Positions 2,249 through 63,314 of a DNA stretch of 64,000 bases are shown one piece after another (position 1 is the stretch's first letter; each line of letters begins with the position of its first letter). Under the pieces are notes generated by a model. It was not told the DNA's origin. It saw nothing but the letters and a program-made list of their open reading frames with translations, and searched no databases. Position numbers and translations under genes: made by a program. Source of the DNA: Escherichia coli (lineage in GTDB: Bacteria > Pseudomonadota > Gammaproteobacteria > Enterobacterales > Enterobacteriaceae); the NCBI RefSeq assembly GCF_003018255.1, contig NZ_CP027440.1; one strand, written 5' to 3'.

Positions 2249-4081
2249 TCAAAACGGAAACAGCATCGGGATCATCACCACACAAACCGCCATCACGATA
2301 ATGGTGAACGGTACCCCCAACTTCACAAAGTCACTGAAGCTGTAATTTCCCGGACCTAAAACCAGTGTGTTAACAGGTGAAGAAACCGGCGTCATAAAGG
2401 CGGCGGATGCTGCCATCGCCACGACCATCGCGAATGGGTAAGGCGACACCCCCATCGTTTTAGCAGCAGCCAGCGCAATCGGAGCCATCAACACCGCCGT
2501 CGCGGTATTAGAAATAAATAGCCCAATAACCGCCGACAAGACAAACAAACAACCCAGCATCATATGTGGCCCGTAACCGCCGCCAATGTCCATCAGCCCT
2601 TTCACCGCCAGCGCAACACCTCCCGTTTTCTGTAATGCCACAGCAAACGGCATCATCCCAACGATCAAAATAATGCTCGGCCAGTGTATGGATTTATAGG
2701 CGCTTTCAGCATCGATACAGCGGAATTTCCCCATCAGCAGGCAGGCGATGATAGCGGCAACAGGATTAGGAATTTCATCGGTCAGCATTAACGCCACCAT
2801 TAGCACCAGACAGAAAATGGCATGGGGTGCCTGACTGTGCGCGGGCGATGCTTCACTCACCTCTTCCGGTAAGTTCAGCGCTACGAAGTCGCGGCCCTGT
2901 TTGGCCAGCATACCGATCAGTTTCCAGTTACCCACAACCAGGATGATATCGCCCAGCAGCAGAGGCTCATCCGCCAGCGAACCTTCCAGCGCCACGCCAT
3001 TGCGCTTTAGCCCCACTACATTCAATCCGTAGCGGGTACGAAAACCAATTTCGCGCACCGATTTACCAATAAGTTCTGACTCAGGAATTAATGAAATCTC
3101 TGCCATGCCCACATCAAGGGCCTGGTCAGAAAAATACTCGCCGCGCAGTACCATCGGCTCCAGCAATTGCTCACTACAAAATTGCCGGAGATCGACATCA
3201 GCCGCAGACATATCAATAAGCAAAACGTCACGCGCGCGAAATTCAGAAACCCCATTAACGTTCACGATAACGCGACGAAAACGCCGCCAGCGTTCAACAC
3301 CGATGACGTTAGCACCATAACGTTCACGTAATTTGAGATCGTCCAGTCGTTGACCAATCATTGGCGATCCGGGGCGAATAGCCAGACGTCGCGCACGCCC
3401 GGTCAGTCGATATTCACGGATAAGATCGCGAAAGGTTCGGCGCGTCCAGCCTTCGCGTTGTGGGGTCTGGGTATCCCCTTTCAGCATGAAACGCATCACT
3501 AACATATACAAAATACCCAGCACCAGCACGACCAGGCCAATAGGTGTTACGCTAAAGAAACTGAAGCCGTGATAGCCTTCACGCAGCAATTCACTGTTGA
3601 CTACCAGGTTCGGCGGCGTCGCCACCAGCGTCATCATGCCGCTTATCAGCCCGGCAAAACTTAACGGCATCATCAGACGCGACGGCGACGTTTGCATACG
3701 CATGGCAACGCTTAACACCACGGGAATAAAGATAGCGACAACGCCGGTTGAACTCATAAACGCGCCAAGCCCCGCGACGGTCAGCATCAACAAAACCAAC
3801 ATTTTGATTTCACTGTTGCCCGCCACTTTGACCAGCCATGTCCCCATTACAGTGGCAACACCGGTACGGACCAAACCATCGCCAATAATGAACAAGGCGG
3901 CAATCAGGACAACGTTAGGATCGGAAAAGCCGGAAAATACTTCGGGGACCGTCAGCGTTCCGCTTAATGCAAACGCGACAATAACAAACAAAGCGACCGC
4001 ATCCATACGCACTCTGCCCGTCGCAAACAAGACGATGGCAACGGCCAGTAATGAAAGAACCCAAATCAATTCACCGTTCAC
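2249..4081 (-). CDS. yfbS: Putative transporter YfbS
   Basis: 610-aa ORF, many hydrophobic segments with a central soluble region; recognised as YfbS; synteny. Confidence 0.88.
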
Positions 4082-4123
4082 AACTTATCCTTGTTAATTG
4101 AGGGGGATAACTTGATTCTGCCA

Positions 4124-4148
4124 TAAAAAAGCCCCGACGAGACGGGGC
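4124..4148 (-). terminator. Rho-independent terminator downstream of yfbT
   Basis: GC hairpin gccccgacgagacggggc; on minus strand followed by T-run. Confidence 0.75.
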
Positions 4149-4167
4149 TAAATCATGATCAGGTGTT

Positions 4168-4818
4168 TCACTGAATAATAACATCGCCATTTGGCTGTTT
4201 GGTCACAGTAATTTGCTCCAGACTGTGGAGGACCAAATCGACCTCATTCAGGCGCGGGGTATCTGCCGGAGCGTTAACCGCAATGACATGGCAACCCGCC
4301 GCCAGGCCAGAAAGCACGCCAGCGGGAGCATCTTCCACCACTACACACTCCTGCGGCGCAAGCCCCAGCAGCTGCGCGCCTAGCAGATACGCATCAGGTT
4401 CTGGTTTTCCGCGCTTCACTCGCTCAGCGGTCACAAACACCTCTGGCGCGGGAAGCCCAGCTATTTTATGGCGCGCTCGCGCTACCGGCATGGAGCCAGA
4501 AGTCACAATGGCCCACGGAATACCTGCTTTATTCAAATGATTGAGTAAGGCGATTGCCCCCGGAAGTGCGGTAATACCCTCGGTTTCCGTGGCCTCGATT
4601 TGCTCCAGACGCGTAAACTCGGCGGCAATATCAGCCTCGGATTTGCCCGCCATAAAATGGCGCAAAGAGGTGATCGCCTGTTTACCGTGAATAAAAGCCA
4701 GCACCTCTTCCGGCGCTAACCCATGACGTCTGGCCCAGTTGCTCCACGCCCGTTCTACCGCAGGCAGGGAATCCACCAGCGTTCCATCAAGATCAAACAG
4801 AAAACCTTTGCACCGCAC
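4168..4818 (-). CDS. yfbT: HAD-family sugar-phosphate phosphatase YfbT
   Basis: 216-aa ORF; HAD motif FDLDGTLVDS at N-terminus. Confidence 0.9.
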   Translation of the reverse strand: MRCKGFLFDLDGTLVDSLPAVERAWSNWARRHGLAPEEVLAFIHGKQAITSLRHFMAGKSEADIAAEFTRLEQIEATETEGITALPGAIALLNHLNKAGIPWAIVTSGSMPVARARHKIAGLPAPEVFVTAERVKRGKPEPDAYLLGAQLLGLAPQECVVVEDAPAGVLSGLAAGCHVIAVNAPADTPRLNEVDLVLHSLEQITVTKQPNGDVIIQ

Positions 4819-4828
4819 GCGGGCCTCC

Positions 4829-5386
<558 letters not shown>

Positions 5387-45061: not shown

Positions 45062-47701
45062 TTATTGGTTCGATGAAACAGACATCGGCGGTTCCATTGG
45101 TGTCACCTGTTGTGTCTGCTCCTGAATTACAGGTTGAATATCATGCGTTATGACGGGAGCACTTCCCCCTTTTTGCTGGCATGGCAACAACAAGCCATTG
45201 AACAGGTCATTCGGTAACGGATCTGGCAGGCTGATATCGCAGTGAGATTCTCCCTCCCAGAAAACGGTCATATGTTCACCCGGCTTAACGCCTGCAAGAT
45301 AAACATTACCTTCGTCATCAACCAGCCCAACTTGTTGTTGATTATCGTTTTTCACTTCCGCCCCAAATGGCGGATGGCTGCCATCCTGCAAGCGCAGCAC
45401 TACCATCGCCTTCTCACCGCTGATCACCGCAAATTTACGGTAGCCAATAGCGCCTTCCGTCAGCGTTGCCTGGACCACCGATTGGGTAGCTTCGGCGTTT
45501 TCCGGTAGTTTGTTCAAATCGATATAAGCCTGGTTACGGTAGTAATCATTAACATCTGCCACCACCGCTTTCCCGAACATGTTGGTATAAACGGCGGAAC
45601 CATTACCTTCGACCGGCACATTAGCAACGCCATCGGCGTCGATTAGCAGACGTGTGCCTCCCATATTTTGCGTACGATGCAACGCCCCGCCGTGAGCAGT
45701 CAGTGTTACACCGCCCTGTAAGGAGACCCCCGCAGATGTGTATTGCCCCTCATGGTAGTTTGCACTCAGGTCAACTTTTGCCAGCGTACCGTCATGACTG
45801 TAATAACCATCAAGACTGGTGTGATTTTCACTGGTTCCGGCGCTCAACGTATAGTGGCTAGCGTCATCGATGCGGTGATACAAACTCGCCTGGCTGCTGT
45901 CGGCACCACTGCCATAATTGCCGTTGTAACTGATGGTGCTGTTGTCACCCCATGGCAAACTCAAGGACAGATAAACACCTTTGTCGGCACTTTTATCATA
46001 TTCGTAGCGATAACCGGTGAGAGAAACGCTCAGGTTGCGAAGACTTCCTAAATTGAAATAATGAGAAAGCATCATGTTGTAGTTGGTCTGATCCTCGCGA
46101 TCCCAATAGGTATGGTGAGAATAATTGAGATAGACCGAAACGCGCGCATCCCTAAAGTTCTGGTTGTAAGTGACCGTGTACATTTCCTTGTCGTTACCCG
46201 TGCGCGCACGGTCGGTGTCGTTCGCATCCAGATACTCACTCATGGTCATGTAGTTTTTTTCAGAGAAGCGATATCCGGCAAACGTCACCCGACTGTTGAG
46301 TTCATCGAAATCTTTGGCATAGCTGACGCGATAAGAGTTGCCGTCCAGCGTTTTGTTGCCATACACGCTGTTATCGTCGAGTTGAACACGAGAGTGAGTG
46401 ACATCAAACGCTAGCGCTCCGAACAGCGCGAGGTCACGACCGAGGCCTAACGCTGCCGACTGGTAGTTTTCATCGGCCAATGCCCCGCCGTAGAGCGACC
46501 AGCCATTCGCAATCCCCCATGACGCCTCACCGCCCGAGAAGAAGCTGCCTGCAACCTGATGGTCCCAGTTTTGTGGACGCCCCATTGTCACTTTGTAACG
46601 CACCTGACCGGGGCGGGTCAGAAACGGCATGGACGCCGTGCTGACGTCATATTCCTGTACCTGACCGTTTTGTTCTTCAATGCGGACATGCAGCGTGCCA
46701 GATACGGAATCGCCAATATCCTGAATGCGGAATGGACCTGCGGGCACCTGGGTTTCGTAAATGACACGGCCCATTTGGGTTACGGTCACTTTAGCGGTAG
46801 TGTGTGCAACGCCGGAAATATCGGGTGCGTAGCCGCGCATGTTTGGCGGTAACATTTGATCATCGGTACTGATGCTGCCGCCAATGTAACTGAAGCCATC
46901 AAAAATATCGGAGTTGAGATAATCTTCACCCAGCGAAAGTTTGGCTTTTAATGACGGCAAGGCGCGCCAGGCGTAGTAACGGCTCCACTCCCAGTTTTTT
47001 TGCGTACCGCTATCATCAGTGTCGCCGTCATCGTTACTGCGGGTATGTTGGTAATCGCTCTGCCAGTCGGCTCGTAAGCGCCACGGCCCCACGTTAACGC
47101 CGACCGTACCATTACCGCTGATGTCGTTAGTGTCATCCCCCCCATTTTCATGTCGGGTTTGTGCGTTGATACTGTAATCGGCAATAAGCCCAGGAATCCC
47201 CTCATCCCAACGCGAAGGTGGGTCCCAGTCATCGTCAGTGTATTCGAGATATGCCTGTGGCACAGAAACTAAGAGCGCAGATTGACTTAAATCGCCCTTA
47301 ATTTCCATACCTCCTATTTGGTCAGTTTTCAGACATTGTCCATCATGACCCCATTGCAAACTCTTCGCAAAATCATCTTTGAAGCCAAACTGGGCTATCA
47401 GTTCAGGTGGTAAGCAGGCATATGATTTATTCGGATCGTTTTCAGCTACATACCAATAGATATCGTATTCATCAGGTAATGGGTGATTATTTACATGAAC
47501 ACGTAAATTGTATTTCCCTGGTTCAACATACCCTTTTTGAGAAAAACGCCCCAGATCAATTTTGGTATTTCCTTTTAACTCCAGAAATCGAGCATCAAAT
47601 TGAATGGTATCATCTGCCAGTACATTAAAAGGACTCCCGGAAATTGCCAGAGCAATCCACCATGAAAGCCCCCGTAAACGAAGAAAAGAATGTTCAGGCA
47701 T
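45062..47701 (-). CDS. yfcU: Outer-membrane fimbrial usher, intact
   Basis: 879-aa uninterrupted ORF; FimD/PapC-like usher; interrupted in K-12. Confidence 0.9.
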   Translation of the reverse strand: MPEHSFLRLRGLSWWIALAISGSPFNVLADDTIQFDARFLELKGNTKIDLGRFSQKGYVEPGKYNLRVHVNNHPLPDEYDIYWYVAENDPNKSYACLPPELIAQFGFKDDFAKSLQWGHDGQCLKTDQIGGMEIKGDLSQSALLVSVPQAYLEYTDDDWDPPSRWDEGIPGLIADYSINAQTRHENGGDDTNDISGNGTVGVNVGPWRLRADWQSDYQHTRSNDDGDTDDSGTQKNWEWSRYYAWRALPSLKAKLSLGEDYLNSDIFDGFSYIGGSISTDDQMLPPNMRGYAPDISGVAHTTAKVTVTQMGRVIYETQVPAGPFRIQDIGDSVSGTLHVRIEEQNGQVQEYDVSTASMPFLTRPGQVRYKVTMGRPQNWDHQVAGSFFSGGEASWGIANGWSLYGGALADENYQSAALGLGRDLALFGALAFDVTHSRVQLDDNSVYGNKTLDGNSYRVSYAKDFDELNSRVTFAGYRFSEKNYMTMSEYLDANDTDRARTGNDKEMYTVTYNQNFRDARVSVYLNYSHHTYWDREDQTNYNMMLSHYFNLGSLRNLSVSLTGYRYEYDKSADKGVYLSLSLPWGDNSTISYNGNYGSGADSSQASLYHRIDDASHYTLSAGTSENHTSLDGYYSHDGTLAKVDLSANYHEGQYTSAGVSLQGGVTLTAHGGALHRTQNMGGTRLLIDADGVANVPVEGNGSAVYTNMFGKAVVADVNDYYRNQAYIDLNKLPENAEATQSVVQATLTEGAIGYRKFAVISGEKAMVVLRLQDGSHPPFGAEVKNDNQQQVGLVDDEGNVYLAGVKPGEHMTVFWEGESHCDISLPDPLPNDLFNGLLLPCQQKGGSAPVITHDIQPVIQEQTQQVTPMEPPMSVSSNQ

Positions 47702-56443: not shown

Positions 56444-57376
56444 ATGGACAACGACAAAATTGATCAACACAGCGACGAAATTGAAGTTGAGAGCGAAGAA
56501 AAAGAGCGCGGCAAAACAATAGAAATAGATGAAGATCGACTCCCCTCCCGGGCGATGGCAATTCATGAGCATATCCGCCAGGATGGTGAAAAAGAGCTGG
56601 AACGCGACGCAATGGCACTACTGTGGTCAGCCATTGCGGCGGGTCTGTCGATGGGCGCTTCGCTACTGGCAAAAGGGATATTTCATGTCGAACTGGAAGG
56701 CGTGCCGGGCAGCTTCTTGCTGGAGAATCTCGGTTATACCTTTGGTTTTATTATCGTCATTATGGCCCGCCAGCAATTATTTACCGAAAACACCGTGACT
56801 GCGGTACTACCCGTCATGCAAAAACCGACAATGAGCAACGTTGGCTTACTTATGCGGTTATGGGGCGTCGTGCTGCTGGGTAATATTCTCGGGACAGGTA
56901 TTGCGGCGTGGGCATTTGAATATATGCCAATCTTCAATGAAGAAACTCGCGATGCATTTGTCAAAATCGGCATGGATGTGATGAAGAACACCCCCAGCGA
57001 GATGTTTGCCAACGCGATCATTTCCGGCTGGCTGATCGCCACTATGGTTTGGATGTTTCCTGCAGCGGGTGCGGCAAAGATTGTGGTGATTATATTGATG
57101 ACCTGGCTTATTGCCCTGGGTGACACCACTCACATCGTTGTCGGTTCTGTTGAAATCCTCTATCTGGTGTTTAACGGTACGCTGCACTGGAGCGATTTCA
57201 TCTGGCCCTTCGCACTACCTACTTTAGCGGGGAACATCTGCGGCGGCACCTTTATCTTCGCGTTAATGAGTCATGCACAGATCCGTAACGACATGAGCAA
57301 CAAGCGCAAAGCAGAAGCACGCCAAAAAGCAGAACGTGCGGAAAACATTAAGAAAAATGATAAAAACCCGGCATAA
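56444..57376 (+). CDS. yfdC: Formate/nitrite transporter-family inner membrane protein YfdC
   Basis: 310-aa ORF; synteny immediately upstream of argW. Confidence 0.88.
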   Translation: MDNDKIDQHSDEIEVESEEKERGKTIEIDEDRLPSRAMAIHEHIRQDGEKELERDAMALLWSAIAAGLSMGASLLAKGIFHVELEGVPGSFLLENLGYTFGFIIVIMARQQLFTENTVTAVLPVMQKPTMSNVGLLMRLWGVVLLGNILGTGIAAWAFEYMPIFNEETRDAFVKIGMDVMKNTPSEMFANAIISGWLIATMVWMFPAAGAAKIVVIILMTWLIALGDTTHIVVGSVEILYLVFNGTLHWSDFIWPFALPTLAGNICGGTFIFALMSHAQIRNDMSNKRKAEARQKAERAENIKKNDKNPA

Positions 57377-57451
57377 ATGGCGAGGGTTTAAGCAATCGAG
57401 CGGCAGCGTACTTACCCCGCAGTCCATTAGCGGGTATACTCATGCCGCATT

Positions 57452-57526
57452 GTCCTCTTAGTTAAATGGATATAACGAGCCCCTCCTAAGGGCTAATTGC
57501 AGGTTCGATTCCTGCAGGGGACACCA
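57452..57526 (+). tRNA. argW: tRNA-Arg (anticodon CCU)
   Basis: 75-nt sequence read directly, matches argW as recalled; anticodon loop cuCCUaa; ends ..ACACCA. Confidence 0.95.
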
Positions 57527-57646
57527 GATACCCTTCAAACCAAATCTACCTTCACCCCGTAAAAGATGGGTTTGGCAGCACACTTGCCCTATATCTACTC
57601 ATTTTTACTGCAACAGGTTGAAATCTCAGCACTGTCAGAAAGCGCT

Positions 57647-57888
57647 GATGACTAAACAGCCCTGGGCCGGGCGATGTAACCATCATACAGAATCCTGATA
57701 GCGAAATATGGCGTGACTCGATACTTCACTCTGCAATGCATTCCTTGATGAATTCGCAGGCCCGTGATACACGGGACACGTGGCTGAATGACGACAATGT
57801 CCTGGAAATCAGCGAACCGCGTATCCGGAGTACATTTGAGCGACTGTACCAGAACATGAATGAGGCGTTTGGATTAGGTGATTATTAG
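57647..57888 (+). other. Orphan reading-frame fragment of unknown origin
   Basis: open frame of ~79 codons ending ..NDDNVLEISEPRIRSTFERLYQNMNEAFGLGDY*; no convincing start or RBS identified. Confidence 0.3.
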
Positions 57889-57967
57889 CAGGGGTAAGCA
57901 TTTTTGTATTATTATTTTCCGGTTGAGGGATATGGAGATATCGACAACAACCGGAAAAAGTTTACGT

Positions 57968-59215
57968 CTATATTGCTGAAGGTACAGGCGTTTCCATAAC
58001 TATTTGCTCGCGTTTTTTACTCAGGAAGAAAATGCCAAATAGCAACATCAGGCAGACAATACCCGAAATTGCGAAGAAAACTGTCTGGTAGCCTGCGTGG
58101 TCAAAGAGTATCCCAGTCGGCGTTGAAAGCAGCACAATCCCAAGCGAACTGGCAATTTGAAAACCAATCAGAAAGATCGTCGACGACAGGCGCTTATCAA
58201 AGTTTGCCACGCTGTATTTGAAGACGGATATGACACAAAGTGGAACCTCAATGGCATGTAACAGCTTCACTAATGAAATAATCCAGGGGTTAACGAACAG
58301 CGCGCAGGAAAGGATACGCAACGCCATAATCACAACACCGATAAGTAATGCATTTTTTGGCCCTACCCGATTCACAAAGAAAGGAATAATCGCCATGCAC
58401 AGCGCTTCGAGTACCACCTGGAATGAGTTGAGATAACCATACAGGCGCGTTCCTACATCGTGTGATTCGAATAAACCTGCATAAAAGACAGGAAAGAGTT
58501 GTTGATCAAAAATGTTATAGAAAGACCACGTCCCCACAATAAATATGACAAAAACCCAGAAGTTTCGATCCTTGAAAACTGCGATAAAATCCTCTTTTTT
58601 TACCCCTCCCGCATCCGCCGCTATGCACTGGTGATCCTTATCTTTAAAACGCATGTTGATCATCATAAATACAGCGCCAAATAGCGAGACCAACCAGAAG
58701 TTGATATGGGGACTGATACTAAAAAATATACCAGCAAAGAACGCGCCAATAGCATAGCCAAAAGATCCCCAGGCGCGCGCTGTTCCATATTCGAAATGAA
58801 AATTTCGCGCCATTTTTTCGGTGAAGCTGTCAAGCAAACCGCATCCCGCCAGATACCCCAGGCCAAAAAAGAGCGCCCCCAGAATTAGACCTACAGAAAA
58901 ATTGCTTTGCAGTAACGGTTCATAAACGTAAATCATAAACGGTCCGGTCAAGACCAGAATGAAACTCATACACCAGATGAGCGGTTTCTTCAGACCGAGT
59001 TTATCCTGAACGATGCCGTAGAACATCATAAATAGAATGCTGGTAAACTGGTTGACCGAATAAAGTGTACCTAATTCCGTCCCTGTTAATCCTAGATGTC
59101 CTTTCAGCCAAATAGCGTATAACGACCACCACAGCGACCAGGAAATAAAAAAGAGAAATGAGTAACTGGATGCAAAACGATAGTACGCATTTCTGAATGG
59201 AATATTCAGTGCCAT
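57968..59215 (-). CDS. cscB: Sucrose:H+ symporter (MFS)
   Basis: 415-aa ORF; MALNIPFRNAYYRFASSYSFLFF.. recognised as CscB. Confidence 0.93.
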   Translation of the reverse strand: MALNIPFRNAYYRFASSYSFLFFISWSLWWSLYAIWLKGHLGLTGTELGTLYSVNQFTSILFMMFYGIVQDKLGLKKPLIWCMSFILVLTGPFMIYVYEPLLQSNFSVGLILGALFFGLGYLAGCGLLDSFTEKMARNFHFEYGTARAWGSFGYAIGAFFAGIFFSISPHINFWLVSLFGAVFMMINMRFKDKDHQCIAADAGGVKKEDFIAVFKDRNFWVFVIFIVGTWSFYNIFDQQLFPVFYAGLFESHDVGTRLYGYLNSFQVVLEALCMAIIPFFVNRVGPKNALLIGVVIMALRILSCALFVNPWIISLVKLLHAIEVPLCVISVFKYSVANFDKRLSSTIFLIGFQIASSLGIVLLSTPTGILFDHAGYQTVFFAISGIVCLMLLFGIFFLSKKREQIVMETPVPSAI

Positions 59216-59286
59216 AATTACCTGCCTGTCGTTAAAAAATTCATGTCCTATTTAGAGATAAGAGCGGCCTCGCCGTTTACTTCTCA

Positions 59287-60201
59287 CTATTCCAGTTCTT
59301 GTCGACATGGCAGCGCTGTCATCGCCCCTTTCGCCGTTACTGCAAGCGCTCCGCAACGTTGAGCGAGATCGATAATTCGTCGCATTTCTCTTTCATCTGT
59401 AGATAATCCCGTAGAGGACAGACCTGTGAGTAACCCGGCAACGAACGCATCTCCCGCCCCCGTGCTATCGACACAATTCACAGACATTCCAGCAAAATGG
59501 TGAACTTGTCCTCGATAACAGACCACCACCCCTTCTGCACCTTTAGTCACCAACAGCATGGCGATCTCATACTCTTTTGCCAGGGCGCATATATCCCAAT
59601 CGTTCTGTGTTTTTCCACTGATAAGTCGCCATTCTTCTTCCGAGAGCTTGACGACATCCGCCAGTTGTAGCGCCTGCCGCAAACACAAGCGGAGCAAATG
59701 CTCGTCTTGCCATAGATCTTCACGAATATTGGGATCGAAGCTGACAAAACCTCCGGCATGCCGGATCGCCGTCATCGCAGTAAATGCGCTGGTACGCGAA
59801 GGCTCGGCAGACAACGCAATTGAACAGAGATGTAACCATTCGCCATGTCGCCAGCAGGGCAAGTCTGTCGTCTCTAAAAAAAGATCGGCACTGGGGCGGA
59901 CCATAAACGTAAATGAACGTTCTCCTTGATCGTTCAGATCGACAAGCACCGTGGATGTCCGGTGCCATTCATCTTGCTTCAGATACGTGATATCGACACC
60001 CTCAGTTAGCAGCGTTCTTTGCATTAACGCACCAAAAGGATCATCACCGACCCGACCTATAAACCCACTTGTTCCGCCTAATCTGGCGATTCCCACCGCA
60101 ACGTTAGCTGGCGCGCCGCCAGGACAAGGTAGTAGCCGCCCGTCTGATTCTGGCAAGAGATCTACGACCGCATCCCCTAAAACCCATACTTTGGCTGACA
60201 T
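59287..60201 (-). CDS. cscK: Fructokinase (PfkB family)
   Basis: 304-aa ORF; ribokinase-family motifs (..DSTGAGDAF..). Confidence 0.9.
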   Translation of the reverse strand: MSAKVWVLGDAVVDLLPESDGRLLPCPGGAPANVAVGIARLGGTSGFIGRVGDDPFGALMQRTLLTEGVDITYLKQDEWHRTSTVLVDLNDQGERSFTFMVRPSADLFLETTDLPCWRHGEWLHLCSIALSAEPSRTSAFTAMTAIRHAGGFVSFDPNIREDLWQDEHLLRLCLRQALQLADVVKLSEEEWRLISGKTQNDWDICALAKEYEIAMLLVTKGAEGVVVCYRGQVHHFAGMSVNCVDSTGAGDAFVAGLLTGLSSTGLSTDEREMRRIIDLAQRCGALAVTAKGAMTALPCRQELE

Positions 60202-60306
60202 TTTTTTCCCTTAAATTCATCTGACTTACGCATAGTGATAAACCTCTTTTTCGCAAAATCGTCATGGATTTACTAAAACATGCATATTCGATCACAAAAC
60301 GTCATA

Positions 60307-60318
60307 GTTAACGTTAAC
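60307..60318. promoter_or_regulatory. Putative CscR operator 1 (perfect 12-bp palindrome)
   Basis: gttaacgttaac in the cscK-cscA divergent intergenic region. Confidence 0.5.
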
Positions 60319-60370
60319 ATTTGTGATATTCATCGCATTTATGAAAGTAAGGGACTTTATTTTTATAAAA

Positions 60371-60382
60371 GTTAACGTTAAC
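60371..60382. promoter_or_regulatory. Putative CscR operator 2 (same 12-bp palindrome)
   Basis: second exact copy of gttaacgttaac, 64 bp from the first, ~35 bp upstream of cscA start. Confidence 0.5.
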
Positions 60383-60416
60383 AATTCACCCAATTTGCTT
60401 AACCAGGATGATAAAA

Positions 60417-61850
60417 ATGACGCAATCTCGATTACATGCGGCGCAAAACGCACTAGCAAAACTTCACGAGCGCCGAGGTAACACTTTCTATCCCCATTTT
60501 CACCTCGCGCCTCCCGCCGGGTGGATGAACGATCCAAACGGCCTAATCTGGTTTAACGATCGTTATCACGCGTTTTATCAACATCACCCGATGAGCGAAC
60601 ACTGGGGGCCAATGCACTGGGGACATGCCACCAGCGACGATATGATCCACTGGCAGCATGAGCCTATTGCGCTAGCGCCAGGAGACGAGAATGACAAAGA
60701 CGGGTGTTTTTCAGGTAGTGCTGTCGATGACAATGGTGTCCTCTCACTTATCTACACCGGACACGTCTGGCTCGATGGTGCAGGTAATGACGATGCAATT
60801 CGCGAAGTACAATGTCTGGCTACCAGTCGGGATGGTATTCATTTCGAGAAACAGGGTGTGATCCTCACTCCACCAGAAGGCATCATGCACTTCCGCGATC
60901 CTAAAGTGTGGCGTGAAGCCGACACATGGTGGATGGTAGTCGGGGCGAAAGATCCAGGCAACACGGGGCAGATCCTGCTTTATCGCGGCAGTTCATTGCG
61001 TGAATGGACTTTCGATCGCGTACTGGCCCACGCTGATGCGGGTGAAAGCTATATGTGGGAATGTCCGGACTTTTTCAGCCTTGGCGATCAGCATTATCTG
61101 ATGTTTTCCCCGCAGGGAATGAATGCCGAGGGATACAGTTACCGAAATCGCTTTCAAAGTGGCGTAATACCCGGAATGTGGTCGCCAGGACGACTTTTTG
61201 CACAATCCGGGCATTTTACTGAACTTGATAGCGGGCATGACTTTTATGCACCACAAAGCTTTTTAGCGAAGGATGGTCGGCGTATTGTTATCGGCTGGAT
61301 GGATATGTGGGAATCGCCAATGCCCTCAAAACGTGAAGGCTGGGCAGGCTGCATGACGCTGGCGCGCGAGCTATCAGAGAGCAATGGCAAACTTCTACAA
61401 CGCCCGGTACACGAAGCTGAGTCGTTACGCCAGCAGCATCAATCTATCTCTCCCCGCACAATCAGCAATAAATATGTTTTGCAGGAAAACGCGCAAGCAG
61501 TTGAGATTCAGCTGCAGTGGGCGTTGAAGAACAGTGATGCCGAACATTACGGATTACAGCTCGGCACTGGAATGCGGCTGTATATTGATAACCAATCTGA
61601 GCGACTTGTTTTGTGGCGGTATTACCCACACGAGAATTTAGATGGCTACCGTAGTATTCCCCTCCCGCAGGGTGACATGCTCGCCCTAAGGATATTTATC
61701 GATACATCATCCGTGGAAGTATTTATTAACGACGGGGAGGCGGTGATGAGTAGCCGAATATATCCGCAGCCAGAAGAACGGGAACTGTCGCTCTATGCCT
61801 CCCACGGAGTGGCTGTGCTGCAACATGGAGCACTCTGGCAACTGGGTTAA
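60417..61850 (+). CDS. cscA: Sucrose-6-phosphate hydrolase / invertase (GH32)
   Basis: 477 aa from MTQSRLHAAQN..; GH32 N-terminal motif WMNDPNG. Confidence 0.93.
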   Translation: MTQSRLHAAQNALAKLHERRGNTFYPHFHLAPPAGWMNDPNGLIWFNDRYHAFYQHHPMSEHWGPMHWGHATSDDMIHWQHEPIALAPGDENDKDGCFSGSAVDDNGVLSLIYTGHVWLDGAGNDDAIREVQCLATSRDGIHFEKQGVILTPPEGIMHFRDPKVWREADTWWMVVGAKDPGNTGQILLYRGSSLREWTFDRVLAHADAGESYMWECPDFFSLGDQHYLMFSPQGMNAEGYSYRNRFQSGVIPGMWSPGRLFAQSGHFTELDSGHDFYAPQSFLAKDGRRIVIGWMDMWESPMPSKREGWAGCMTLARELSESNGKLLQRPVHEAESLRQQHQSISPRTISNKYVLQENAQAVEIQLQWALKNSDAEHYGLQLGTGMRLYIDNQSERLVLWRYYPHENLDGYRSIPLPQGDMLALRIFIDTSSVEVFINDGEAVMSSRIYPQPEERELSLYASHGVAVLQHGALWQLG

Positions 61851-61857
61851 CATAATA

Positions 61858-62853
61858 TCAGGTGGAACAACGGATCAACAGCGGGCAAGGGATCCGCGTC
61901 ACTCTTCCCCCTTCACGATCTTCAATAATATGCAATGCAGCTTCCCGCCCGATAATGTCATGTGGAAGCTGAATTGTGGTCAGCGGCGGTAAAAACAGAT
62001 GCCCGACGCCAACCAGATTATCAAAGCCCATTACGGCGACATCCTGCGGGATACGTACCCCCTTCGCCAGGAGAACCTGATAAGCGACAAAGGCTGCGCG
62101 ATCGTTACCACATATCAGAACATCAAAATCTGGTTTGCCCGATTTGAAGTGGTCATTGAGTAAACTTGCGAGATCGGTGTAGTGATCATCACCTGTTGCC
62201 ATGTGAAATTGTTTCACCTCAGCCAGATCTCGTCCAGCATCACGCCAGGCCTGCTCAAATCCCTGCCGACGATACCCTGTTGCCAACGCACTTTCCGGTA
62301 GCCAGAAGCATAACGGTTGACGATAGCCCGCCGCGAGCAAATGCTGTGTTGATTCATATTGTGCAGTGTAATCATCAGGGATATAACTGGGTAACGCTGG
62401 GTCATCCGCCACACAGTTCGCCAATACAATATTTTCACCATACAGAGACTCAGGCAGCGAGATATGTCGCAGCCCCATTGTAGTATAGATAATGCCATCC
62501 GGACGGTGGGCAAGCAGCTGACGTGCCGCGCGGGCAGCGTCATCTTCAGAAAAAATATTGATTAAAAAACTATTCCAGCCAAACTCGCTGGCGGTTTGCT
62601 CAATGGCAAGCAGAATATCAACAGAGAAAGGAGTGGTGGCCGTGTCCTGCGCCAGCACGGCGAGAGTCGACGGCTTACGTCCTTGAGCGCGCATCTTACG
62701 GGCGGAAAGATCAGGAACATAATTCAGGGTCTGGATTGCCTGCAATACGCGGTCACGCGTTGCAGGACGCACAGATTCTGCATTATGCATCACCCGGGAG
62801 ACTGTCATCATCGACACTCCCGCCAGGCGTGCGACATCCTTTAATGAAGCCAT
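61858..62853 (-). CDS. cscR: LacI-family sucrose operon repressor
   Basis: 332 aa from MASLKDVARLAGVSMMTVSRV (HTH); ORF track over-extended upstream to 63051. Confidence 0.9.
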   Translation of the reverse strand: MASLKDVARLAGVSMMTVSRVMHNAESVRPATRDRVLQAIQTLNYVPDLSARKMRAQGRKPSTLAVLAQDTATTPFSVDILLAIEQTASEFGWNSFLINIFSEDDAARAARQLLAHRPDGIIYTTMGLRHISLPESLYGENIVLANCVADDPALPSYIPDDYTAQYESTQHLLAAGYRQPLCFWLPESALATGYRRQGFEQAWRDAGRDLAEVKQFHMATGDDHYTDLASLLNDHFKSGKPDFDVLICGNDRAAFVAYQVLLAKGVRIPQDVAVMGFDNLVGVGHLFLPPLTTIQLPHDIIGREAALHIIEDREGGRVTRIPCPLLIRCST

Positions 62854-63095
62854 ACCCAAGCCGTTTGCCGTAAAACGGGCACTGTAGCAGAAACAGACGT
62901 CACTGGCGAGATCCAACGATATTCTCAACGCCCTATCACCCGACACGGCAATACAATAAAAAATAACAATAATTCCCGGACAATTGTACCCAATTCCGCC
63001 TCTGTTCTCGCCAACGAGTAACCATGTAGGCAAGTAGGTAAAACATGCCAACTGGCATCGCCAACCTGGAGAAGAAAATATAAATATGGATCATT

Positions 63096-63314
63096 GTGCT
63101 GCCGCTGTATCCCGACATCAGTCCGGAAATTATTGCGATTGCTATCGGTTCAGGTGCGATTGGCTGCACGATCGTTACGGACTCGCTTTTCTGGCTGGTG
63201 AAGCAATATTGCGGCGCTACGCTCAATGAAACATTTAAATACTATACGACAGCGACATTTATCGCTTCAGTCGTCGCTCTGGCGGGCACATTCCTGCTGT
63301 CATTTATCATCTAA
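63096..63314 (+). pseudogene. dsdX: 3' remnant of D-serine transporter gene dsdX (last ~72 codons)
   Basis: translation ..[71 protein letters not shown] matches DsdX C-terminus; no N-terminal part upstream. Confidence 0.85.

Follow-up and report, generated by a model that had tools for sequence, protein, structure and literature searches.

The csc regulon of Escherichia coli lies between the tRNA gene argW and a truncated dsdX (Jahreis et al. 2002; Moritz & Welch 2006, cited in PMC11251922 and PMC3032704). The argW-dsdCXA/csc interval is described as a variable region and recombination hotspot of this species, and the argW site is also used by lambdoid or P22-like prophages, for example CPS-53 (PMC11251922, PMC3032704). 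The locus considered here, part of a 64,000-nt stretch of E. coli DNA that is called the window below, is the same one, and the mapping of csc in it agrees with the published arrangement. PMC11251922 and PMC3032704 deal with the csc genes and the hotspot and contain no description of the 441-bp spacer between argW and cscB or of its DUF4942 content.

The closest described counterparts of that content are found in CP4-type islands, which integrate at tRNA genes and of which DUF4942 genes are characteristic. The full-length gene has 281 codons and is the last gene of CP4-44/CP4-57-type islands, where it closes a module in the order DUF932, antirestriction, JAB/RadC-like, DUF987, YeeU/CbeA antitoxin, CbtA toxin, DUF5983, DUF957 and DUF4942. 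The references used for CP4-44/CP4-57/CP4-6-type islands are full-length copies at ileX in strain 135 (WP_001564112.1), at serX in UTI89 (WP_001280460.1) and in one island of Nissle 1917 (WP_001529401.1). Full islands of this type have an integrase and may carry cargo after DUF4942, as with the kps genes in Nissle. A 46-kb CP4-type island at ileX in strain 135 (NZ_CP080260.1; locus L024, 28333–37732) carries raffinose/sucrose-type cargo that consists of a carbohydrate porin, a fructokinase-like kinase, a GH32 hydrolase, an MFS transporter and an alpha-galactosidase; CP4-type islands can, therefore, ferry sugar-utilisation genes.

On the basis of profile, protein and nucleotide comparisons, the spacer in the window contains an interrupted and still diverging internal fragment of a DUF4942 gene, on the plus strand at approximately 57577–57880, which is most likely a functionless relic riding with csc; we put the probability of this reading at about 0.88. 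The relic resembles the island genes in that it is homologous to their codons 33–66 and 85–152, adjoins a tRNA gene and scores above the Pfam cut-off. It differs from them in that only 36% is left, without a start codon and with a frameshift and an internal deletion, and in that the neighbours DUF957, DUF5983, CbtA and CbeA are missing. The whole upstream module (antirestriction, JAB/RadC, DUF987, CbeA, CbtA, DUF5983, DUF957), which is present in three of the island loci compared (L003, L004 and L025), is absent beside the relic, where argW lies directly upstream. Furthermore, the relic is co-directional with argW, whereas DUF4942 is convergent with the tRNA gene in the two islands in which the orientation was checked (ileX and serX), and none of the full-length copies found comes near its lineage, the closest reaching about 55% amino acid identity. 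No new mechanism or system is involved and the feature matters little in that respect: it is already annotated, RefSeq labelling the ORF "DUF4942 domain-containing protein", and it is an ordinary pseudogene relic.

Limits of the spacer and the argW attachment site

The tRNA-Arg(CCU) gene argW was located by ARAGORN and Rfam (tRNA, 63.4 bits) at 57452–57526 on the plus strand, and the ORF list places cscB, encoding the 415-aa sucrose permease (in RefSeq an MFS transporter within the csc locus), at 57968–59215 on the minus strand, with its stop codon at 57968–57970 as the right limit of the spacer. These two features fix the spacer at 57527–57967, 441 bp, in agreement with the preliminary description. 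The same description saw no recognisable gene in the interval. No ORF with a start codon exceeds 50 aa there; a DUF4942 gene relic is present. It also reported one frame staying open for some 79 codons at 57647–57888. The frame that starts at 57647 is full of stops; the open one, on the plus strand, is 57652–57888 (78 codons and a TAG), and the peptide that had been quoted, ending in DTWLNDDNVLEISEPRIRSTFERLYQNMNEAFGLGDY before the stop, is indeed found on translation. The first nine or so codons of this frame belong to the first segment of the relic, read out of frame.

Within the frame, the longest ATG-initiated ORF of the ORF list is 57736–57888 (50 aa), which corresponds to WP_001317963.1, a "DUF4942 domain-containing protein" called by PGAP in a 99.8%-identical RefSeq genome. 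When the sequence upstream of the ATG at 57736 was read directly, no Shine-Dalgarno-like motif was seen, and consensus scans for promoters and terminators gave results at chance level. A scan of 57350–58050 against Rfam 15 (E ≤ 1) returned the tRNA only. In 441 bp, an open frame of 78 codons is unremarkable alone, and homology is what counts.

Homology to K-12 stops exactly at 57526, with the final base of argW, which bounds the csc-type segment on the left, and restarts at 63097 within dsdX. The csc-type segment, 57527–63096 (5.57 kb), stands in place of the 95 bp that follow attR, of dsdC and of 1,120 nt from the start of dsdX. Immediately past argW the csc-type flank already differs from the dsd-type one, and foreign DNA begins exactly at the tRNA end, which is one of the features of a CP4-type island. 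Where argW is occupied by an integrated prophage or another inserted element, the first 50 nt after argW (57527–57576) are found directly after the attR core copy, CTGCAGGGGACACCA. Since the spacer comes after the attR copy of the tRNA end, it represents the bacterial side of the attachment site, of which these 50 nt are the immediate flank. They are also the most variable part of the spacer in the allele alignment. Compared with the 5' part of the DUF4942 gene and the DNA upstream of it, they gave scores of 8–10 against a shuffle mean of 8.5, which is not significant; a single collinear 18-nt match to the DUF4942 side in the allele of MS15236 is only suggestive. Neither the 50 nt nor the rest of the spacer has a counterpart in the 95 bp that separate attR from dsdC in K-12.

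Other elements at argW were encountered in the course of these comparisons. P22-like prophages leave a 15–16-nt core at this site. The O157:H7 strain SS52 (locus L002) has a different argW element with a recombinase-family gene and hypothetical genes, the distal repeat of which (3979–4000; 22 nt, TTCGATTCCTGCAGGGACACCA) has one G fewer than argW. Four "complete phage genome" records of argW-integrating phages, ON470594.1 (L014, 5837–11565), ON470589, ON470608 and ON470622, run past the attR core (L014 5837–5851) and go on for approximately 5.7 kb through the relic and cscB, cscK, cscA and cscR. Either the limits of these prophages were drawn too wide, or the records represent specialised-transduction-like carriers of csc.

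DUF4942 homology and anatomy of the relic

The 78-aa conceptual peptide matches the Pfam family DUF4942 (PF13708) with 35.4 bits, against a gathering cut-off of 25, and an E-value of 1.1e-8. The match spans profile positions 5–62 of 190 and so falls close to the beginning of the domain; the whole 190-position domain is not encoded in one intact frame. When two full-length DUF4942 proteins were compared with the spacer by tblastn, two collinear segments in different frames were obtained, one covering residues 76–151 (47% identity, E = 4e-16) and the other residues 38–70 (42% identity, E = 0.004), the latter with two in-frame stops. The DUF4942 homology found by tblastn, blastn and Pfam is significant and, as the preliminary description had surmised, the spacer contains part of a protein-coding gene and not random sequence.

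Alignment of the DNA resolves the two segments further. Segment 1, 57577–57679 on the plus strand, corresponds to nucleotides 97–198 of the gene (codons 33–66) with 71.6% identity in a global alignment, and contains a 1-nt insertion at 57584 in addition to the in-frame stops; its local alignment score is 37, against a shuffle mean of 11.2 with a standard deviation of 1.9. Segment 2, 57680–57880 on the same strand, corresponds to nucleotides 254–454 (codons 85–152), with 72–74% identity by blastn and local alignment. Between the segments, 55 nt of the gene (nucleotides 199–253) are deleted, which shifts the frame; in the parent gene, the stretch that was lost lies between two short repeats, GCGATGAAA and GCAATGAAA. 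The DNA alignment score reaches 97 where shuffled sequences attain a maximum of 14–15, and identity is 72.6% over 303 nt, compared with 47% in protein. About 36% of the 846-nt gene survives; the start is lost and the coding sequence is cut off at codon 152.

No DUF4942 homology was found by alignment past 57880. The next 19 nt, 57881–57899, form a junction that is homologous to neither the relic nor the csc module, its left limit being taken from the DUF4942 alignments and its right limit, the start of csc at approximately 57900, from the comparison with Citrobacter described below. The last two codons of the open frame and its TAG (57886–57888) fall into this junction, and the stop codon is an accident of the joining to the csc module. 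The ending of the frame had led the preliminary description to propose the C-terminal fragment of a protein rather than random sequence. A real gene fragment it is, but an internal one, because the match covers positions 5–62 of the 190 in the Pfam profile and lies within residues 33–152 of 281. By these comparisons the relic is to be regarded as homologous to the DUF4942 family, but as a pseudogene fragment and not as a member protein.

Several large resources were searched for the full-length parent. A word-indexed search of 5.8 billion proteins returned only the same fragment, in versions of 44–131 aa, and an exhaustive search of 1.84 billion cluster representatives returned full-length relatives only at approximately 40–51% identity. 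In tblastn searches, the best genuine match among plasmids was 55%, and matches above 90% among phages came exclusively from records that extend into chromosomal DNA. In 100,044 species-representative genomes, peptide patterns from the fragment revealed no relative, a search in which exact 8-mers detect close relatives only. Hence, a close full-length parent is not found in the resources searched, where the nearest full-length genes stand at approximately 50–55% amino acid identity, and the parent lineage is unsampled. The matches above 90% in the plasmid collection belong to records of 0.37–4.9 Mb, far above the usual size of a plasmid and in two cases chromosome-sized, which look like chromosomal DNA deposited under the wrong heading.

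The csc module and two possible histories of the relic

A search for CscB in species-representative genomes led to loci in two Citrobacter species (L017 and L021) that share with the window a block of approximately 5 kb, 57900–62894, at 80–83% nucleotide identity; we take this block as the csc module. It occupies 2320–7319 in L017 and 2323–7318 in L021, and is flanked by two ABC-permease genes (yjfF-like) on one side and by an MCP gene on the other, beyond which follow fbp, mpl and a gene of the pmbA/tldD family. No tRNA gene, DUF4942 gene or mobility gene is present at either of these two csc loci. Since the block shared with Citrobacter starts at approximately 57900, the relic lies outside the csc module, with the 19-nt junction between them. 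At the opposite end, the shared part stops at 62894, 41 nt upstream of cscR, leaving 202 bp (62895–63096) between the end of the module and the truncated dsdX; this stretch was found only in csc-positive E. coli genomes, without paralogues. Two truncated genes bracket the csc segment, the left end of which directly adjoins argW, and 57900–62894 can be given as the limits of the transferable csc module, which should be useful to those moving csc into production strains.

The cscB-side end of the module, 57900–57967 on the minus strand, consists of 68 nt common to both Citrobacter loci. It contains a hairpin at 57915–57958, likewise on the minus strand, which begins 9 nt past the cscB stop codon and has an 11-bp stem, TTTTCCGGTTG pairing with CAACCGGAAAA, and an inner 5-bp stem. 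Folded as RNA on the cscB strand, it reaches –18.5 kcal/mol (z = –4.0), and none of 200 shuffled sequences was as stable. Between E. coli and Citrobacter the stem does not change, while the loop varies. The 3' tail is UAAUAAUACAAAAAU, with no U-run; the hairpin has a long loop region and was not called by the consensus terminator scan. It is probably the transcription terminator of cscB and, as part of the csc module, the only element of the spacer that is likely to be functional.

The relic and the csc genes are completely linked. Among 5,426 complete E. coli genomes, the relic with its spacer is present in 2,644 and the adjacent 3' end of cscB in 2,645, in every case on the chromosome, and in no csc-negative genome was the relic or the first 143 nt of the spacer found. 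The relic, as judged from these searches, is fixed in essentially every csc-positive E. coli. Such linkage fits arrival of the relic together with csc, and equally a bystander gene that was cut when csc arrived.

The course of events that we propose has three steps. A CP4-type island, or a piece of one, would once have lain beside argW, with DUF4942 reading away from the tRNA gene; one deletion would have taken everything from the tRNA junction through the 5' part of DUF4942; and the event that installed csc would have cost DUF4942 its 3' part on one side and, on the other, eliminated dsdC with the first 1,120 nt of dsdX. The former island is deduced from the relic itself, because neither an integrase nor a second argW 3' end accompanies it. 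The ORF list contains no tyrosine integrase between argW and cscB, and a search of the 64-kb window for the attR core with up to three mismatches found no copy other than argW. A match at 45098 was considered as attR and set aside as chance-level, and the 13-mer GCAGGGGTAAGCA at 57888–57900, which agrees with the att sequence at 10 of 13 positions here and at 9 of 13 in most alleles, was not counted as a copy. Because the relic is co-directional with argW where the island genes are convergent, one has to suppose either that the island had another geometry or that a rearrangement took place. The preliminary description had suggested a scar of the element that delivered the island. To speak of a mobile-element scar is fair, because DUF4942 is characteristic of tRNA-integrating CP4-type islands and the relic is island-derived; that this element delivered csc is unproven, the Citrobacter module being without the relic.

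Two histories account for the present arrangement. In the first, to which we give slightly less than an even chance, the island was resident at argW, and csc replaced the stretch from the middle of DUF4942, across attR and dsdC, to the middle of dsdX by illegitimate or flank-guided recombination, a separate deletion having shortened the island from the side of the tRNA gene. The truncated genes that bracket the csc module, the DUF4942 fragment and the dsdX fragment, are what such a replacement would leave behind; the module boundary near 57900 is the same in Citrobacter, which places the relic outside the transferred unit, and no attR is left. The history has to accommodate, however, that none of the 5,426 E. 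coli genomes has a csc-free precursor, whether recognised by the DUF4942 lineage of the relic or by the 143 nt that open the spacer, and it requires a second, independent deletion that ended exactly at the tRNA gene.

In the second history, which we consider tenable but rather doubtful, a CP4-type island that had the csc genes among its cargo, downstream of DUF4942, integrated site-specifically at argW, after which deletions took its integrase, most of its body and its distal end. The csc-type sequence leaves the K-12 type exactly after the last base of argW, as site-specific integration predicts, and the complete linkage of relic and csc, together with the absence of the relic from csc-negative genomes, is what joint arrival would produce. 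The relic also stands apart from all resident E. coli paralogues (72–74% nucleotide identity), which suggests a foreign source, and both the kps genes of Nissle and the sugar-utilisation cargo described above illustrate what islands of this type can hold. Against this, the 5-kb csc module is found elsewhere in Citrobacter without relic, tRNA gene or mobility gene, such that a vehicle is not needed; the cut through the middle of DUF4942, 19 nt from the module, looks like illegitimate replacement and not like the carriage of cargo; and on its right the segment stops within dsdX instead of at an att repeat. The more specific proposition that 57527–63096 as a whole came into Escherichia as cargo of a CP4-type island with an unsampled DUF4942 lineage, and decayed in place, we regard as unlikely. 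If it were true, the relic would be the only surviving marker of the vehicle and donor of the chromosomal sucrose pathway of E. coli.

Decay of the relic and its annotation

The spacer is far more variable than cscB: with a threshold of at least 99% identity to the window, cscB is found in 2,467 genomes and the spacer in only 82. When blastn was run in a mode suited to distant similarity, the spacer itself was recovered in 2,623 of the 5,426 complete E. coli genomes, and matches of approximately 200 nt at 71–77% identity to annotated full-length DUF4942 genes were obtained in 1,779 further genomes. Decay was analysed on ten aligned alleles that span 90–100% identity. Variable sites in the frame fall on codon positions 1, 2 and 3 in the numbers 10, 15 and 11, without a third-position excess. 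Three of the ten alleles have a premature TGA (..PRI*STF..), and the allele of strain F11 has a different stop and a 6-nt deletion, such that stops precede the end of the frame in four of the ten. The pattern of variable sites, the stops and the deletions, together with the lack of a Shine-Dalgarno motif and of any RNA family in the spacer, argue for a neutrally decaying pseudogene, and we infer that the relic is neutral and non-functional.

It is accordingly very improbable that the ORF, which has 50 aa counted from the ATG at 57736 and is longer in some alleles, gives a functional small protein retained from DUF4942 by domestication. The window and many genomes do have an uninterrupted frame, PGAP annotates a CDS in it, and variable columns are somewhat fewer in segment 2 (16%) than in the initial 125 nt of the spacer (24–27%), all of which such a protein would explain. 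The distribution of variable sites and the early stops run counter to it, and the ORFs called at the site in public data start at varying positions and range from 44 to 85 aa. Moreover, in an evenly spaced sample of the match list, PGAP annotated no ORF in 12 of the 29 genomes that have the whole spacer, and neither a Shine-Dalgarno sequence nor a promoter-like site lies upstream. Neither purifying selection nor an ORF intact across strains, the marks of a functional small gene, was found. Lastly, that the interval is an ordinary non-coding spacer with a chance protein similarity, as its unremarkable GC content (45.6%, beside 43.5% in cscB and 49.1% in yfdC) would allow, is refuted by the homology statistics and has next to no probability, given a Pfam match above the curated cut-off, the tblastn E-value of segment 2, the DNA matches to DUF4942 genes in 1,779 other genomes and scores far outside those of shuffled sequences.

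The decay bears on how the site is annotated. The small "DUF4942 domain-containing protein" CDSs in RefSeq, such as WP_001317963.1 (50 aa), WP_371289776.1 (60 aa) and WP_224922710.1 (68 aa), represent the same locus in other genomes, and the family label is thus already public. PGAP mostly presents them as intact short proteins and only some as partial or pseudo, whereas here they are read as pieces of a pseudogene. Thousands of RefSeq genomes list proteins of 44–85 aa under this name at the site; as pieces of one pseudogene, they should be flagged.

In some lineages the erosion has gone further, which also speaks against a functional small protein. The relic of a divergent Escherichia genome (L016) is the same one, but additional deletions have removed most of the region. 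In an ETEC genome (L006, NZ_LR882990.1), an intS-like integrase fragment and ISEc46, an IS200/IS605 element with tnpA and tnpB, lie between argW and cscB (2957–4960), and only the last 79 nt of the spacer are left; the loss of the relic there looks like an IS-associated deletion.
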